IMG/VR virus record: IMGVR_UViG_3300020733_000010
Span: 96,001 to 160,000 of that record
Length of the DNA stretch: 64,000 bases
Reading direction: 5' to 3' (one strand)
From: a virus
The notes beneath the pieces were generated by a model. That model saw only the letters and a program-made list of their open reading frames with translations. It was not told where the DNA came from and did not search any database. Shown piece by piece: positions 58,095-64,000 of the stretch. Position numbers and translations under genes: made by a program. How positions within the stretch are numbered: the first letter of the stretch is position 1; every line of letters starts with the position of its first letter.

Positions 58095-58730
58095 ATGACA
58101 TACATAAACATTATTAAAATGTTTCTGTTGTTGCCTATAATTGTAACAGGTACATATCTGGCGAATGTGTACAACAAAATGCAACAACCGATCCCAAAAG
58201 AGCCAGTCAAGGTGGCTAAAGTTGTGGATCAAAAACAATTAAGTTGTTTAGCGGACAACATCTACTATGAAGCAGGCTCGGAAATAACTGAGGGCAAAGC
58301 TGCCGTCGCTCGTGTAGTATTAAACCGTATTAACAACGGAGGATTTGGGTCAACACCATGTAAAGTTGTATACCAAATGACACAAGTAAAACAAATCAAT
58401 ACTGATACAGAAGAACCATTTTGGATAAAAGTCTGTCAATTTAGTTGGGTTTGTGAGGGTAAGGGTAACCCAAACAAACGTGACCCACGTTACCAAAAGA
58501 GTTTACAGGTGGCATATGATGTGTTAGCATATGATGCATATAAGGATATAATTCCACGTAGTGTATTATATTTTCACAACACAAGCATAACACCTGATTG
58601 GCCGCATGAAGTTGTGAAGAAAATAGGAAATCACATATTCTATAGAAAATCGCATAAACATGGACATAACCAAACGCATAAATATAACACGGTCACCACA
58701 ACGCAATCTTTTCCAGAAGAAAAGGTATAA
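58095..58730 (+). CDS. SleB-like cell wall hydrolase (Hydrolase_2)
   Basis: N-terminal membrane anchor, CLADNIYYEA..GKAAVARVVLNR, CQFSW, LYFH and IGNHIFY. Confidence 0.85.
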   Translation: MTYINIIKMFLLLPIIVTGTYLANVYNKMQQPIPKEPVKVAKVVDQKQLSCLADNIYYEAGSEITEGKAAVARVVLNRINNGGFGSTPCKVVYQMTQVKQINTDTEEPFWIKVCQFSWVCEGKGNPNKRDPRYQKSLQVAYDVLAYDAYKDIIPRSVLYFHNTSITPDWPHEVVKKIGNHIFYRKSHKHGHNQTHKYNTVTTTQSFPEEKV

Positions 58731-59247
58731 GGATAAGTTGCTATTAGATCCAAATAATGAAGTTGCAAAAGATATGTTAGAAAATATAGATTTTGAAGAA
58801 CATCGTAAATTAGATTTGGAAAATGACCCAGAGTGGCGTAAAGACAATTTAGAATATGACTTGCGTACCAATGAATATATGGTAAATAAAGTTAGAACTG
58901 ATATAGTCTATGCCCAACATCTGTATGCTGCATTGTGTAACAACGACTATCAAAAGAATGATGTGTGGCCTATACTACAGGATAAACGCTGGAGTTGCAG
59001 TTGGCGGTATGCTGGTGGCATACTTGCTAACATGTGCGGTGAGGGCGATTACATGGATTGGTACTGTAGTGGAATTACCTCGTCTACGGATATAACTGAT
59101 GAAGAATTTGCCCAAATGACAAAAGAAAGGCAAGAAAGTTACCTAACAAGTAAACGGTTTGTCAGTGAAGGCGTTATAAGTAGTGAGATACTTGAAGATT
59201 TGTTTAATTTGGGTTGGAAGCCCGTAGGAGATAACAATGAGTTTTAA
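58660..59247 (+). CDS. Hypothetical protein (195 aa)
   Basis: YAQHLYAALCNN..WSCSWRYAGG..GDYMDWYCSG; overlaps the end of the hydrolase gene by 71 nt. Confidence 0.65.
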   Translation: MDITKRINITRSPQRNLFQKKRYKDKLLLDPNNEVAKDMLENIDFEEHRKLDLENDPEWRKDNLEYDLRTNEYMVNKVRTDIVYAQHLYAALCNNDYQKNDVWPILQDKRWSCSWRYAGGILANMCGEGDYMDWYCSGITSSTDITDEEFAQMTKERQESYLTSKRFVSEGVISSEILEDLFNLGWKPVGDNNEF

Positions 59248-59530
59248 AAAGATTTTAATTGGTACTACACTATTAATTAGTGTTTCAGCGTTTGCCCAAC
59301 ATGGACATTGGGAACGTCACGGTGGTGGTTGGGGCTGGGTAGCTCCTGTAGTTATCGGTGGCGCAATCGGCTATGAACTAGCACGTCCTGTAGCACCTGT
59401 AGTTATTACTCAGCAACCACCGGTTGTTATTCAACAACCGCAAGTTGTGCAAACACAAAACTGTAGCCCATGGACTGAAATTCGTAACCCTGACGGTACT
59501 GTAACTGTTACCCGTACTTGCACACAGTAA
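59237..59530 (+). CDS. Exported Gly/Pro/Val-rich small protein
   Basis: Signal peptide (MSFKKILIGTTLLISVSAFA), HGGGWGW, a glycine-zipper-like helix, PVVI repeats and a C-terminal Cys pair; AGGAG Shine-Dalgarno. Confidence 0.65.
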   Translation: MSFKKILIGTTLLISVSAFAQHGHWERHGGGWGWVAPVVIGGAIGYELARPVAPVVITQQPPVVIQQPQVVQTQNCSPWTEIRNPDGTVTVTRTCTQ

Positions 59531-59553
59531 TTTGTTAGCACAGACGTACTATA

Positions 59554-59560
59554 TTAAATA
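59554..59560 (+). promoter_or_regulatory. Late-like promoter box TTAAATA heading the acyl operon
   Basis: taTTAAATAgttgATG, 4 nt before ATG 59565; no Shine-Dalgarno sequence. Confidence 0.45.
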
Positions 59561-59564
59561 GTTG

Positions 59565-60395
59565 ATGGCATTTAATATAAACGACTATTTTAACGAAATT
59601 AAACCCAACTTGGTTGAAGTAGAGACTAAAGTTGGGAGTATGGCAGTATATAACCATGACCAAATCATTAGCACAGCATTATTGTTGTATGGTGAATATT
59701 GTCATGCAGAAGTAGATATACTCTGTAGATATCTCAATAATAAATCCGTTTATTTAGACGTTGGAACTAATATTGGCTATCAGTTACGTGCAGTATACTT
59801 TCAATCAAAAGCAAACTGTATTGGATTTGAGCCACACATCACACATTTTACGGTTGCAGCATACAACTGTCAACATTTCCCCATTAAGATTATCAATAGT
59901 GCGTTAGGTAACGGTAAGGGTAAAACCATTATCAGCGACTTTGACTTAGAAGTAACTAGCAATTATGGGGAAGTTCATATCTGTGACGAGGGTATTGAAG
60001 CAAATATATCACGCATAGACGACTTGAAACTAGCGGGGTTAGACGCAATTAAGATAGACACTGAGGGTACGGAACTTGATGTACTTAAGGGTGGATTAAG
60101 AACTATTAAAAAGTATCGTCCAGTTATATTATTTGAAGCTAACACAGATTATACAAAATCCGTAAAGTACTTAGAAAAGCAAAATTATAGTTTTTATTGG
60201 GTCAGTTGTAGATATAGCCCAATGAGTGCTAACTTTAAAGGAAATATGAATAATCCTTTTGGACGTGCGGGAAGCACAAACATATTAGCAGTACCCGTTG
60301 AACGTGAGCAACCTACAGATTTATTGCCCCTAGTTGGTGGTGAGAATCATAGTGAAACAGTCACACGAATAGAAAATTACAAGTTAGTATTTTAA
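59565..60395 (+). CDS. FkbM-family SAM-dependent methyltransferase
   Basis: YGEY..E, YLDVGTNIGY, GFEP, IKIDTEGTELDVLKG and RPVILFE. Confidence 0.88.
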   Translation: MAFNINDYFNEIKPNLVEVETKVGSMAVYNHDQIISTALLLYGEYCHAEVDILCRYLNNKSVYLDVGTNIGYQLRAVYFQSKANCIGFEPHITHFTVAAYNCQHFPIKIINSALGNGKGKTIISDFDLEVTSNYGEVHICDEGIEANISRIDDLKLAGLDAIKIDTEGTELDVLKGGLRTIKKYRPVILFEANTDYTKSVKYLEKQNYSFYWVSCRYSPMSANFKGNMNNPFGRAGSTNILAVPVEREQPTDLLPLVGGENHSETVTRIENYKLVF

Positions 60396-60929
60396 ATGAT
60401 AATACACAAAATACATGATAATTCCAACAGTCACGTGATGAAACTACTAACTGACGAGTTTAGTACAATCACGGATACTGATATCATCAAAAACTATCAT
60501 CCAGACTATATGAATGAACCCAGCAACATCTTTTATATACTGAATGATAGAAATGGAAGATATCACAATGGGGCATATTATGTTATTGAAGAAGATGGAT
60601 TTGTTGCTAGTGCAGGATATAATGAGTACGACCAAGACACAATATTAGCCATAACACGCATGTATGTGTCAGTTAATTATAGGGCTAAGTTTTATATAGG
60701 AAAATATGTCTTGCCCACTATACTTGAAGACACAAAACACTATAGTAAGATTTGGATAACATTCAACGACTATAATCATATATTGTATCAGTATTTTGTA
60801 AGAACTAGTCAGGATAAACGAACCGGCTTATATGCACCCTGGCCTGATATCTATAAACAATTTAAACCCATAGGAAAAAAGACAATAAATCATACTGAGC
60901 AGTATGTAGTTGAAAAGAGGAACATATGA
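60396..60929 (+). CDS. GNAT-fold acyl/acetyltransferase
   Basis: FVASAGY..ILAITRMYVSVNYRAKFYIG, matching GNAT beta4/motif A; ATG directly follows the upstream stop. Confidence 0.6.
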   Translation: MIIHKIHDNSNSHVMKLLTDEFSTITDTDIIKNYHPDYMNEPSNIFYILNDRNGRYHNGAYYVIEEDGFVASAGYNEYDQDTILAITRMYVSVNYRAKFYIGKYVLPTILEDTKHYSKIWITFNDYNHILYQYFVRTSQDKRTGLYAPWPDIYKQFKPIGKKTINHTEQYVVEKRNI

Positions 60930-61144
60930 CAGACCAAGAAAAGATTGAATTTTTGCAGACAGCAATCAAAGAGTTGTTTAACCGTAGTGTAAACATAAGT
61001 CCTGACAACTTATTGATTGACCTAAAACTAGACTCACTAGATATTGTCGAGTTACAAGTATATTATGAAGAACAGTCCGGTATTGAGTTATCTGACGATA
61101 CCAAACTGGTTACCGTTAAAAACTTAATGGATTTGATGAAATGA
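60926..61144 (+). CDS. acp: Acyl carrier protein
   Basis: 72 aa, acidic, DLKLDSLDIVEL phosphopantetheine-attachment motif, E..GIE.SD and TVKNLMDL tail. Confidence 0.85.
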   Translation: MTDQEKIEFLQTAIKELFNRSVNISPDNLLIDLKLDSLDIVELQVYYEEQSGIELSDDTKLVTVKNLMDLMK

Positions 61145-62064
61145 ACTATACGTTCAATAACCACTTAAAATATACGATAGGTGGCAGACTTTATGGAGCA
61201 AGAACTAGTCCAACGGAAAAGTTTGAAGTATCTGTGGGTCAAATTGATGTTGAACAATATAAAAATAGTACGTTCCGTGACGAGTTATTACGAACCGCAG
61301 ATTTAGTCTATAAAGACTATGGTAAAGACTTTGCATTGTTTCTAAGTGGTGGTACTGATTCTGAGATTGTTTTAAGAAACTTTTTAGATATTGGGGTTAA
61401 ACCACAATGCTATACGATTTGTTTTGAGAATGAATATAACAGAACCGATGTTAATGAAGCAATAGACCTAGCTAAGGAATTAGACGTTAAATTAAATATC
61501 ATTGACTTTAACGTAAAAGACTTTCTATACAGCGGGGAAGCAAGTGAGTTTGGAAACAAGATACAATGTACACAGATTACATATCTTATGGTCTATCGTT
61601 GTATCAAACAGTTGGGTTTGCCCAGTGTCATGGGCGGAGAATTATTACTTAAACGAAACATATATACTGAACCGACTACTTGGTACTATTGTTTCCGTGA
61701 AAATGAAGATGCTAGTGCAATTAGATTCAGTGAAACATACAATATCCCATTGGTCAACGAATGGTTCAGTTATACCCCTGAACTAATGTTGTTCTATTTA
61801 GAACAACAAGCTATACACAGTTTGGTCAACGAAAAATACAATTATAAATTAACTTCGGTAAGTAGCAAAAATGCTATTTTAAAACAGTTATTACCCGAAA
61901 TCCGTGTACGTAAAAAGACGCATGGATTTGAAAAGTTATTGGGTTTTAACTATGAAGCATATAGACAATTATCCAGTGAGCAAATTCCCAGACTTGAGCA
62001 AAGTTTAGATGGCATCGAATTCTATACACTATTAGATAGGTTAAAAGGTAATGAAGGTAATTAA
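61141..62064 (+). CDS. Asparagine-synthetase-like ATP pyrophosphatase (PP-loop) lacking a glutaminase domain
   Basis: LFLSGGTDSEIV PP-loop and VMGGE motif; only 307 aa, no N-terminal Cys Ntn domain. Confidence 0.7.
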   Translation: MNYTFNNHLKYTIGGRLYGARTSPTEKFEVSVGQIDVEQYKNSTFRDELLRTADLVYKDYGKDFALFLSGGTDSEIVLRNFLDIGVKPQCYTICFENEYNRTDVNEAIDLAKELDVKLNIIDFNVKDFLYSGEASEFGNKIQCTQITYLMVYRCIKQLGLPSVMGGELLLKRNIYTEPTTWYYCFRENEDASAIRFSETYNIPLVNEWFSYTPELMLFYLEQQAIHSLVNEKYNYKLTSVSSKNAILKQLLPEIRVRKKTHGFEKLLGFNYEAYRQLSSEQIPRLEQSLDGIEFYTLLDRLKGNEGN

Positions 62065-62647
62065 GTTATCAAGTGAGCACGTAAACACAGTTAGACCATT
62101 GTTTGAGGGTCCTAACTTCATGGGCGTGGATAGTACAACCAACTATTTTATAGATAGTACAGAGAACTTTGTTGACTTTTACCATGAAGCATTTTGTCAC
62201 GCATACTTAACCAATTTAACTAACTATCAAAGTTTTGCGGTATTGGATGACAATGATACAATTGAGTGCTTGATTGCGTTTTATGAGAGTATTGACGATG
62301 CCAGCTGGTACTGGACTCAAATACGTAGTAGAGGGAACAAACATGCAATTAGATTATGTTTGGACAGTGTAATTGACTATAATGAAAACAACAATAGATT
62401 TAAGTTCTATAGCATGTTTCCTAGCAAATATATTGAGTTATACCGTAGATTAGCATTCAGCGAAACAAACCGTGAACGCTATGATAGTTTTGATGAATAT
62501 TTGGTTGAGCCAAGAACACAGTGCCCGTTTAGTCTAGCATGGCATATATTGTACAATAGAACATTAGTTCCTGTAGAAACAGTAGTTCGCTGCACATACT
62601 TAAAAAGACAATATAGAAACACTGTTCCTAACTTGGGGAAACTATAA
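62051..62647 (+). CDS. Unknown protein, paralog A (possibly GNAT-like fold)
   Basis: Shares MxVIKL, FYES.D...WY, LD.VI.YNE.N.R.KFY, ERY..FDE and VVRC..LK..YR with the next gene. Confidence 0.6.
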   Translation: MKVIKLSSEHVNTVRPLFEGPNFMGVDSTTNYFIDSTENFVDFYHEAFCHAYLTNLTNYQSFAVLDDNDTIECLIAFYESIDDASWYWTQIRSRGNKHAIRLCLDSVIDYNENNNRFKFYSMFPSKYIELYRRLAFSETNRERYDSFDEYLVEPRTQCPFSLAWHILYNRTLVPVETVVRCTYLKRQYRNTVPNLGKL

Positions 62648-63216
62648 TGCCGGTGATTAAACTAGACCAATCACACAGAGAGTTATGCAAAGATATATTT
62701 AACCATGATAAATTCATGGGTTTGGAAGTGAATGAGCAGGTTAATAATGTACTTTATGATAGATTTTGCAATACATATCTATTTGACTTAAAAAACTTCC
62801 ATTGTTTTGCGAATGTAATTGATGAACAAATCAAAGCACTGATTACCTTTTATGAGAGTGTTGACGAACCCGCTTGGTATTATACACTGTACAGAAGCAT
62901 GGGTGATAACAACTTGTTGCGTGAAGTATTAGATACAGTCATAGAATATAACGAAAAGAACGGAAGATTGAAGTTTTACACACTTGTGCGTAGTAACCAT
63001 TCAAAGTTACTTAGAAGATTTCATTGGAGTAAATACAATAATGAGCGTTATGGATATTTTGATGAGTGTCTAGTTCCTGCAAGACATAAAAGCTATTACA
63101 ATAATCACTGGGAATTGTTGTTTAAAAATATCTTGTTACCAGAAGATTCTGTTGTACGTTGTAACTTTCTCAAGCAGGAATATAGAAAAACATTGCCGAT
63201 AGGTGGGAATTTATGA
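62647..63216 (+). CDS. Unknown protein, paralog B (possibly GNAT-like fold)
   Basis: Paralog of 62051-62647; TAATG coupling. Confidence 0.6.
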   Translation: MPVIKLDQSHRELCKDIFNHDKFMGLEVNEQVNNVLYDRFCNTYLFDLKNFHCFANVIDEQIKALITFYESVDEPAWYYTLYRSMGDNNLLREVLDTVIEYNEKNGRLKFYTLVRSNHSKLLRRFHWSKYNNERYGYFDECLVPARHKSYYNNHWELLFKNILLPEDSVVRCNFLKQEYRKTLPIGGNL

Positions 63217-64000
63217 ATTTAAAGAGTGTTGCACAAGCGTTTTGGTTTCAGTTCTTTCCAGCAATATTGCTAGGATCGACAACCATCGTGTTATTGTGCA
63301 TGGGTATTATTCCAATATACTATTTGTGTTATACATTTATCATGTGGGTATTGGTATGTGGATTGGGCATTGCTGTAGGATATCATAGGGTATTTGCACA
63401 TAGAACACATAAACTTCCACAATGGAAAGAAAACATTATATTATTCTTTGCGGTGTTTGCAGGTCAAGGTGCAAGCATATTTTGGGTGGCTATGCATAGA
63501 GGATATCATCATCCATACAGCGACACAATAAAAGACTATCATAGTCCAGTTGCATATAACAAATTTACTGCATTTGTGGGCTGGTATTTTAGAATTACTG
63601 AAACTGAGAACCTTGTTAACTTAAAGGGTTCTATTGACTTGTTACGCAAAAAGAACCATCTATTCTTCCACAACTATTATAAAAGAATACTATGGGGTGT
63701 TCCTTTATTAGTTGCATGTATTGACTGGAAGTTTGCATTGACTGGATTCTGTCTAGTCACTATGATTGGATCACTACAAGATAATCTTGTAAATGTCTAT
63801 GGGCATTACAAGGGACTATTAGGTTATAGAAACTTTGAAACCAGAGATAACTCACATAATAACTTTATTCTTGGATATCTAGCATGGGGACAGGGCTGGC
63901 ACAATAATCACCATTATGCCCCCTCATCATTTGACTTTGGATCAGGTGTAAGCGGAAAATGGTACGAGTTTGATCCTTGTAGGTTACTAAAACCTTTATT
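63213..64000 (+). CDS. Membrane fatty-acid desaturase, Delta9 (OLE1/DesC) type; 3'-truncated and absent from the ORF track
   Basis: Translated by hand from ATG 63213: transmembrane helices, His boxes GYHRVFAH, HRGYHH and GWHNNHH, plus NLVNVYGH and WYEFDP. No stop before the window end. Confidence 0.92.
   Translation, partial: MNLKSVAQAFWFQFFPAILLGSTTIVLLCMGIIPIYYLCYTFIMWVLVCGLGIAVGYHRVFAHRTHKLPQWKENIILFFAVFAGQGASIFWVAMHRGYHHPYSDTIKDYHSPVAYNKFTAFVGWYFRITETENLVNLKGSIDLLRKKNHLFFHNYYKRILWGVPLLVACIDWKFALTGFCLVTMIGSLQDNLVNVYGHYKGLLGYRNFETRDNSHNNFILGYLAWGQGWHNNHHYAPSSFDFGSGVSGKWYEFDPCRLLKPL

Follow-up and report, generated by a model that had tools for sequence, protein, structure and literature searches.

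Cassettes combining a ligase, a desaturase and a small acyl carrier protein (ACP) are known from JamA, JamB and JamC, in which the desaturase acts on the ACP-tethered chain (bioRxiv 10.1101/291195), and dedicated ACPs are also known in sphingolipid synthesis (PMC9386255). Among phages, the DesC-like Delta9 desaturases of cyanophages (vFAD-I/II) are active and desaturate C16 chains at Delta9 in yeast (PMC5776448), and freshwater Flavobacterium jumbophages carry a 'host-interface island' with two ACPs that was proposed as a modulator of host membrane components (PMC13573597). Here, we describe a phage gene cluster in which ACPs and desaturases are found together with AsnB-class PP-loop ligases (PPL) and GNAT-fold proteins, the last three being the core that is kept in viral relatives. 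The cluster lies at the end of a 64,000-nucleotide stretch (the window, bases 96001-160000 of the 178,144-bp IMG/VR viral record IMGVR_UViG_3300020733_000010) and continues into the downstream 18 kb of the same record, numbered separately as L003 (window position = L003 position + 62199). The CheckV completeness of the record is 51%, and the whole phage genome is probably about 350 kb.

On the plus strand, the open reading frame (ORF) table revealed a chain of ten genes with abutting or overlapping ends, running from an FkbM methyltransferase gene through the first GNAT-fold gene (G), ACP1, PPL1, unkA, unkB and Des1 to PPL2, Des2 and AcpS, the last of these encoding a phosphopantetheinyl transferase (PPTase). 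The FkbM gene and G are abutting, ACP1 and PPL1 each begin with a 4-nt overlap, unkA overlaps the preceding ligase gene by 14 nt, unkB begins with a 1-nt overlap and Des1 with a 4-nt overlap. An earlier note on the window, made from the letters alone, had listed these stop/start junctions, every one of which was reproduced from the ORF coordinates; its gene assignments all stand on hidden Markov model, fold and motif evidence, and its suggestion that the operon runs past the window was borne out by the presence of PPL2, Des2 and AcpS on the same strand. A convergent operon on the minus strand contains, in this order, unkC, u123, ACP2, Des3, an Asp/Asn-hydroxylase-like cupin gene, a radical-SAM gene and u152, so that both operons together comprise two ligases, four GNAT-fold proteins, three desaturases, two ACPs and one AcpS. 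The box TATATTAAATAG is located directly 5' of the TTG-ATG at 59562/59565, and TAAATA also precedes unkC and u123 on the minus strand, at the extrapolated window positions 70277 and 69676; judged by sequence, TATATTAAATAG/TAAATA is a late-promoter-like, candidate promoter element. A scan of the convergent region for sigma-70 promoters and terminators gave no signal above shuffled sequence.

The conservation of this arrangement was analysed in 80 IMG/VR loci with a PPL 40-72% identical to that of this phage, obtained with unkA and the A2 profile as queries (PPL2 alone found no related locus in IMG/VR), of which the 64 with 2 kb or more of sequence on either side were counted. A GNAT-fold gene directly after the ligase gene was present in all 64 loci and a same-strand desaturase gene no more than 2 kb away in 62, with a G ortholog upstream of the ligase in 40. 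When the loci are coded by gene order (G, first GNAT; A, ACP; P, ligase; U, unkA-type; D, desaturase), the desaturase is found either after the ligase/GNAT pair (GAPUD, GPUD, APUD) or before it (DPU), and because it occurs on either side, its linkage to the pair outlasts rearrangement. The invariant core is an AsnB-like ligase, a GNAT-fold protein and a desaturase. Co-conservation had been proposed in the earlier note as a check on its operon, and the core proved syntenic in 64/64 viral loci; the label 'ACP-centred' given there is wrong for the family, because an ACP is present in just 26 of the 64, immediately upstream of the ligase except in L047, and a CheckV-complete relative of 524 kb has neither ACP nor PPTase. 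In five large relatives, the 524-kb one included, PF01648 was absent from all and PF00550 from three. An Asp/Asn-hydroxylase-like cupin gene takes the place of the ACP in some relatives, FkbM is only sporadic and outside the conserved core, and AcpS was found near the module in one other locus only (L030). This phage is an unusually complete, duplicated version of the core module.

The relatives, a lineage of very large uncultured phages, carry the module on contigs of 234-525 kb. A set of 5.8 billion proteins gave 774 homologs of PPL1 at E<=1e-3; the 120 best of them share 67% identity or more, no name beyond 'hypothetical' being attached to any, and a PPL profile search revealed 1975 clusters (50% identity) at E<=1e-3. 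GenBank phages (INPHARED) gave no match by blastn with the 3.9-kb cluster stretch L003:1-3900 or by tblastn with PPL2 and a neighbouring 682-aa protein, PPL, unkA, G and AcpS are without a family in PHROGs, and PADLOC returned only generic QueC-motif and viperin-core matches.

Table 1. Features of the cluster and its flanks. Positions without a prefix are those of the window; bit scores are followed by the respective cut-off.
Feature	Position	Strand	Description
Promoter-like box	59549-59560	+	TATATTAAATAG; TAAATA part at 59555-59560; directly before first gene
FkbM methyltransferase	59562..60395	+	277 aa from TTG; ATG at 59565 likelier start
G	60396..60929	+	GNAT-fold protein, 177 aa
ACP1	60926..61144	+	72 aa; PF00550 24.8 vs 20.8 bits; DSLD serine
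PPL1	61141..62064	+	AsnB-class PP-loop synthetase domain without glutaminase domain (predicted), 307 aa
unkA	62051..62647	+	Divergent GNAT-fold protein, 198 aa; directly downstream of ligase
unkB	62647..63216	+	Tandem paralog of unkA, 189 aa, 41% identical to unkA
Des1	63213..64000 (= L003:1014-1805)	+	Membrane di-iron desaturase (predicted), 263 aa; ends 4 nt past window
PPL2	L003:1805-2707	+	Second AsnB-class PP-loop ligase (predicted), beyond window
Des2	L003:2701-3480	+	PF00487 desaturase
AcpS	L003:3477-3836	+	TIGR00516 78.5 vs 59.8 bits; PF01648 57 vs 25 bits
u152	L003:3963-4421	-	152 aa, no family named
Radical SAM	L003:4405-5271	-	Above curated Pfam/NCBIfam threshold
Asp/Asn-hydroxylase-like cupin	L003:5268-6050	-	PF05118 (LpxO/OlsC/AspH) 35.2 vs 22.6 bits
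Des3	L003:6047-6790	-	PF00487 desaturase
ACP2	L003:6794-7030	-	PF00550 37.7 vs 20.8 bits; DSLD serine; directly upstream of Des3
u123	L003:7085-7456	-	123 aa, between unkC and ACP2
unkC	L003:7478-8068	-	Distant paralog of unkA/unkB; heads convergent operon
Hydrolase_2 (SleB-like) cell-wall hydrolase	within 58095-59530		N-terminal hydrophobic segment; left flank
u195	within 58095-59530		195 aa, conserved, no family named; left flank
Secreted protein	within 58095-59530		97 aa; signal peptide, Gly/Pro/Val-rich body; left flank
28-tRNA array	L003:9040-19858 (~7-18 kb past window end)	+	ARAGORN; right boundary

The two ligases gave only sub-threshold Pfam/NCBIfam matches around SGGxDS, with PF00733 reaching 14.3-16.4 bits on the PPL proteins compared to a gathering score of 21. 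The SGGxDS motif is invariant across the family, and conservation extends to a GG(E/D) motif and to N100, D103, K243 and K259. When the AlphaFold2 (AF2) model of PPL1 (predicted local distance difference test, pLDDT, 82) was compared with solved structures, it matched AsnB/ASNS, beta-lactam synthetase and carbapenam synthetase over about 250 residues (Z 15.7-13.8), the best being ASNS (Z 15.7, root-mean-square deviation (rmsd) 3.8, 256 aligned), with E. coli AsnB at Z 15.4, LarE at about 11, TilS at 9.8, and NadE, TilS and TtuA all below 10. A structure search of the Atlas with PPL1 gave template modelling (TM) scores of 0.65-0.71 to Asn_synthase clusters. No GATase match was found in the PPL proteins (300-307 aa), and the alignment to AsnB begins only from residue ~73 on. 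Despite the sub-threshold PF00733 score, PPL is by its modelled fold an AsnB-class synthetase domain, in agreement with the 'AsnB-like ligase' without glutaminase of the earlier note. Two other assignments of the ligase were rejected: an Fe-S or sacrificial-sulfur (LarE/TtuA) enzyme, as the family alignment has no invariant cysteine and the fold score is below that of AsnB, and a QueC/7-deazaguanine enzyme, as the PP-loop motif alone matches, with scores far under the cut-off. In clusters P0179, P0180, P0169 and P0261 the ligase is fused to a canonical GNAT domain at either end, such fusions being found in other large phages; complex prediction of PPL1 with unkA gave a score of 0.00, which is evidence neither way.

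The GNAT-fold partners were recognised mostly by structure. G was sub-threshold for Pfam Acetyltransf_1 (16.8 bits vs. 20.7, E 0.0083) and reached TM 0.59-0.78 to GNAT clusters in the ESM Atlas. For unkA, unkB and unkC no Pfam GNAT match was obtained at E<=5, and the unkA-family profile gave nothing meaningful against PDB sequences. The AF2 model of unkA (pLDDT 90) has a canonical single-domain GNAT fold, with Z from 14.0 (rmsd 2.9, 148 aligned) to 11.3 across 50 GNAT entries. The GNAT and the 'two paralogs' named in the earlier note were thus recovered as a GNAT fold for G in the Atlas and as paralogous, GNAT-fold unkA and unkB. In contrast, its analogies with FeeM/NAS, OlsB and LuxI found no sequence support, as PF13444 was not matched by G or unkA-C at E<=5 and the GNAT-fold proteins are generic N-acetyltransferase-like.

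The three desaturases scored 47.6, 41.5 and 51.3 bits against PF00487 (cut-off 29.7; Des1 about 47.6-47.9), and Des1, in which hydrophobic segments are present, matched SCD1 (4ymk) at E 4.1e-13. All histidines of the boxes HRxxxH, HRGYHH and HNNHH are invariant in the A4 alignment of paralogs and orthologs, and the proteins are predicted to be Delta9/SCD-DesC-type membrane di-iron enzymes. In relatives, up to five PF00487 paralogs occur within 6 kb of the module (L008:14134-17177, L073:13021-14600), which suggests diversified regiospecificity or substrate.

Regarding the carrier proteins, the DSLD serine is invariant in both ACPs, and ACP2 matched ACPs of fatty acid synthase (FAS) in the PDB at E 5.6e-8. 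The earlier note had asked for a PPTase downstream and AcpS, with GxD and KEAxxKA motifs, was found there; from its sequence, it should make both ACPs holo by 4'-phosphopantetheinylation of the serine. The acyl-AMP (ANL) ligase that was also looked for (PF00501) is absent from the 178-kb record. Together with the resemblance of the ACPs to those of FAS, a PPTase of the AcpS type suggests that the cargo is fatty-acyl. Among the tailoring genes, the FkbM protein matched PF05050 (9.3e-11, 42.6 bits vs. 22.7) and TIGR01444 (1.5e-15, 57.9 vs. 37.7), and Tes, a lipid-tail enzyme, is among the best NCBIfam matches of the radical-SAM protein, at a score far under the cut-off. The SCD-type desaturases, the LpxO/OlsC-family cupin and the radical-SAM protein fit a tailoring of the acyl chain.

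Outside phages, the ligase family was found, in GTDB species representatives, almost only in metagenome-assembled genomes of Bdellovibrionota (23-28% identity), being present in 7 of 151 sampled Bdellovibrionota genomes, often in several copies and up to seven. These ligases adjoin A4-type desaturases and Asp/Asn-hydroxylase-like genes (L103, L121, L122, L111, L099) in ordinary chromosomal surroundings with LspA, PBP4, SLT, GT2 and phosphoenolpyruvate (PEP) mutase genes. Compared with the unkA profile by hhalign, the ORFs downstream of them showed no similarity, and only in L107 is the ligase beside a canonical GNAT. The islands combine SCD-type desaturases with several Asp/Asn-hydroxylase-like paralogs, and that of L099 also holds PEP mutase, GT2 and radical-SAM genes.

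What is established are the enzyme classes, the coupling of the genes and their co-conservation, and the mechanism beyond these we infer. GNATs use acyl-thioester donors, and in the AsnB family the enzyme makes an acyl-adenylate on which a nitrogen nucleophile then acts. LarE shows that a thiol, too, can attack a PP-loop adenylate. From the donor and acceptor needs of the GNAT fold, AsnB adenylation and the precedent of JamA/JamB/JamC, a pathway is therefore proposed in which an acyl group is activated and carried, desaturated or hydroxylated, and transferred to nitrogen. We hold this interpretation, a thioester-dependent pathway leading to a tailored amide-linked lipid, tentatively and with slightly less than even confidence. 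In such a pathway, the PP-loop enzyme would adenylate a carboxylate and the phage ACP would carry the acyl group in thioester linkage, with host ACP or coenzyme A (CoA) taking its place in ACP-less relatives. The 178-kb record contains no ANL enzyme, ketosynthase, PlsC-type acyltransferase or Spt-type enzyme; because of this, the PP-loop enzymes are the sole carboxylate activators beside the ACPs, and ACP loading would fall either to the host FAS or to the PP-loop enzymes via an acyl-adenylate. The membrane desaturases, the hydroxylase and the radical-SAM enzyme may then tailor the chain and a GNAT-fold protein could move it onto an amine acceptor; the PP-loop enzyme, if it is not the loader, might instead amidate a carboxylate of the product. 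The resulting lipid, amide-linked and unsaturated or hydroxylated, would remodel the envelope of the infected cell or act as a diffusible N-acyl amide. A sphingolipid or ornithine-lipid pathway proper was considered and rejected at the sequence level, PF00155, PF13444 and PF01553 being absent from the record, which covers about 51% of the genome.

A bolder version of this pathway, which we regard as unlikely, would make the AsnB-class PP-loop proteins new carrier-protein/CoA ligases which, fused or coupled to a GNAT and paired with a membrane desaturase, work in an 'activate, carry, desaturate, N-transfer' machine shared by huge phages and Bdellovibrio-like predators, lipidating or remodelling the envelope of the cell they occupy. 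The role of such a machine could be, for instance, to N-acylate amines of the peptidoglycan or envelope or to make N-acyl amide effectors, and the two ACPs and AcpS would free this phage from host ACP.

Several observations weigh against the proposed acyl pathway. No AsnB-class enzyme is known to load a carrier protein. An ACP is absent from 38 of the 64 loci, and more distant ligase-GNAT fusions occur in loci without a desaturase (L011, L014), for which reasons the substrate of the ligase/GNAT pair may be non-lipid. The model of unkA is best matched to SpeG, RimI and EctA-type acetyltransferases and not to known long-chain N-acyltransferases, and PF13444 (OlsB/NAS) is absent from the 178-kb record at E<=0.01. 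SCD/DesC-type desaturases normally use acyl-CoA or acyl-lipids, not acyl-ACP, and the closest solved relative of the cupin is the small-molecule beta-hydroxylase Cpz10 (E 4e-6).

The resemblance of unkA to acetyltransferases and the desaturase-less fusions of more distant phages also favour the alternative that survives best, namely that two functions without relation to each other share one accessory island, with the desaturases acting alone on host glycerolipids as auxiliary genes for membrane fluidity, as in cyanophages, while the ligase and GNAT amidate or acetylate a non-lipid target and the ACPs serve something else. Peptidoglycan stem peptides (through amidation of meso-diaminopimelate (mDAP) or iso-Glu together with N-acetylation) could be the target, as could a polyamine or a protein. 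The position of the module directly after the Hydrolase_2 cell-wall hydrolase gene, here and in many relatives, and that of a Bdellovibrionaceae ligase copy beside LspA, PBP4 and SLT genes also speak for this alternative, and stand-alone phage DesC-like desaturases are functional (PMC5776448). However, the linkage and paired duplication of the genes argue against it: the same-strand desaturase is kept nearby in nearly all loci through the DPU/PUD rearrangement, the ligase-desaturase link recurs in Bdellovibrionota, ligase and desaturase were duplicated together with overlapping stops and starts (PPL1..Des1, PPL2-Des2), and the ACP, where present, is directly upstream of the ligase, with the one exception noted above. 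Therefore, we consider an island of two functions somewhat unlikely.

Both remaining explanations are weaker than that one. Lasso cyclases belong to the AsnB class and are ~500-600 aa long, and a GNAT attaching a desaturated, ACP-borne fatty acyl group would be akin to selidamide-type lipidation. A ribosomal or other lipopeptide pathway could be imagined, in which a lasso-cyclase-like AsnB enzyme, forming a macrolactam or amide, acts with a cupin beta-hydroxylating Asp/Asn, radical-SAM cross-linking and GNAT acylation on a precursor such as u123 or another small ORF. The AsnB fold class of PPL, the weak matches of the radical-SAM protein to peptide maturases, the orphan u123 between unkC and ACP2, and the radical-SAM/SPASM maturase-like genes lined up close to the module in related phages (L007) would fit, but PPL has 300 aa compared to the much longer lasso cyclases, the radical-SAM protein does not match SPASM, u123 matches no family and has no core rich in Cys, Ser or Thr, the core genes of GAPUD, GPUD and DPU loci are accompanied by no conserved small ORF resembling a precursor, and B-protease and RRE-type genes are absent, making this pathway improbable. 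Very improbable is a nucleic-acid modification in which QueC/TilS/LarE-like PP-loop enzymes act with GNAT and radical SAM on phage tRNA or DNA, since, although there are weak PP-loop-motif matches to QueC, TilS_N and LarE, the best PDB sequence match of PPL is [4Fe-4S] LarE (8cnz) and a tRNA array begins ~1 kb past the cluster, the motif matches are limited to SGGxDS and far under cut-offs, the full-length fold is AsnB-class (Z 15.7 vs. 11 for LarE and 9.8 for TilS), no invariant cysteine is available for an Fe-S cluster or sulfur donation, and the ACPs, AcpS and three membrane desaturases would have no role.

With respect to the surroundings, the window also encodes a portal, a major head protein, a ribonucleotide reductase and very large structural genes. 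Many relatives likewise have the hydrolase and u195 of the left flank upstream of their module, with a NifU_N gene sometimes inserted, and between the tRNA genes on the right 180-190-aa ORFs are scattered. In a 358-kb relative, the module is closely preceded by three consecutive SPASM/radical-SAM maturase-like genes of 425-441 aa (L007:2076-5994) and followed by further radical-SAM, PhyH and aminotransferase genes; this lineage is unusually rich in oxidative and radical enzymes. In a 234-kb relative, the large subunit of ribonucleotide reductase is apparently split, with a weak intein-splicing match (L008:1-3476), upstream of the syntenic block of hydrolase and module.

Every component of the cluster comes from a known superfamily, and the whole fits phage auxiliary lipid/acyl metabolism. 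The statement of the earlier note that no full operon like this was known agrees with the literature searched, in which neither a ligase, GNAT and desaturase module nor a phage AcpS in such a cluster was described; PMC12619734 and bioRxiv 10.64898/2026.10.24.761521 make no mention of these genes. The core is widespread, as the homologs, clusters and syntenic loci counted above show. Knowledge of its product would give a large family of viral proteins a function and could uncover a new amide lipid or a way to acyl-thioesters that bypasses ANL enzymes. It would also show how the envelope of an occupied cell is rebuilt by huge phages and possibly by predatory bacteria.

When compared with described systems, the cluster is like the JamABC/TtuABC-type cassettes in bringing together a small dedicated ACP, an ATP-dependent carboxylate activator and a PF00487 membrane desaturase, with ACP1 and Des1 in one operon and ACP2 adjoining Des3. 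The activator of JamABC is an ANL ligase, whereas here it would be an AsnB-class PP-loop enzyme; the desaturases resemble the Delta9/SCD type, the partner that never varies is a GNAT-fold protein, there is no polyketide synthase or nonribosomal peptide synthetase as receiver, and the ACP is optional. With AsnB, beta-lactam synthetase and carbapenam synthetase, PPL has in common the synthetase-domain fold and SGGxDS, but as a protein of 300 aa without glutaminase domain and below the PF00733 threshold it forms a distinct family, viral in all contexts inspected apart from the Bdellovibrionota copies. The combination of an ACP, a GNAT-superfamily protein and an LpxO/OlsC-family hydroxylase (PF05118) recalls OlsB/OlsC, FeeM/NAS and bacterial ceramide synthase, although PF13444, PlsC/OlsA-type and Spt-type proteins are missing here and an AsnB-like ligase is foreign to those routes. 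The Flavobacterium jumbophage island is likewise a jumbo-phage accessory island with two ACPs (PMC13573597), its description listing secreted or lipoprotein candidates and a phosphohydrolase and mentioning no desaturase, ligase or GNAT. The cyanophage vFAD-I/II are likewise phage-encoded Delta9-type membrane desaturases with three His boxes (PMC5776448), but they stand alone, whereas the three paralogs here belong to operons that also encode ligases, ACPs, GNAT-fold proteins and a PPTase. Whereas the known phage auxiliary lipid genes are mostly single enzymes, this cluster would represent a multi-enzyme carrier-protein pathway with its own PPTase.

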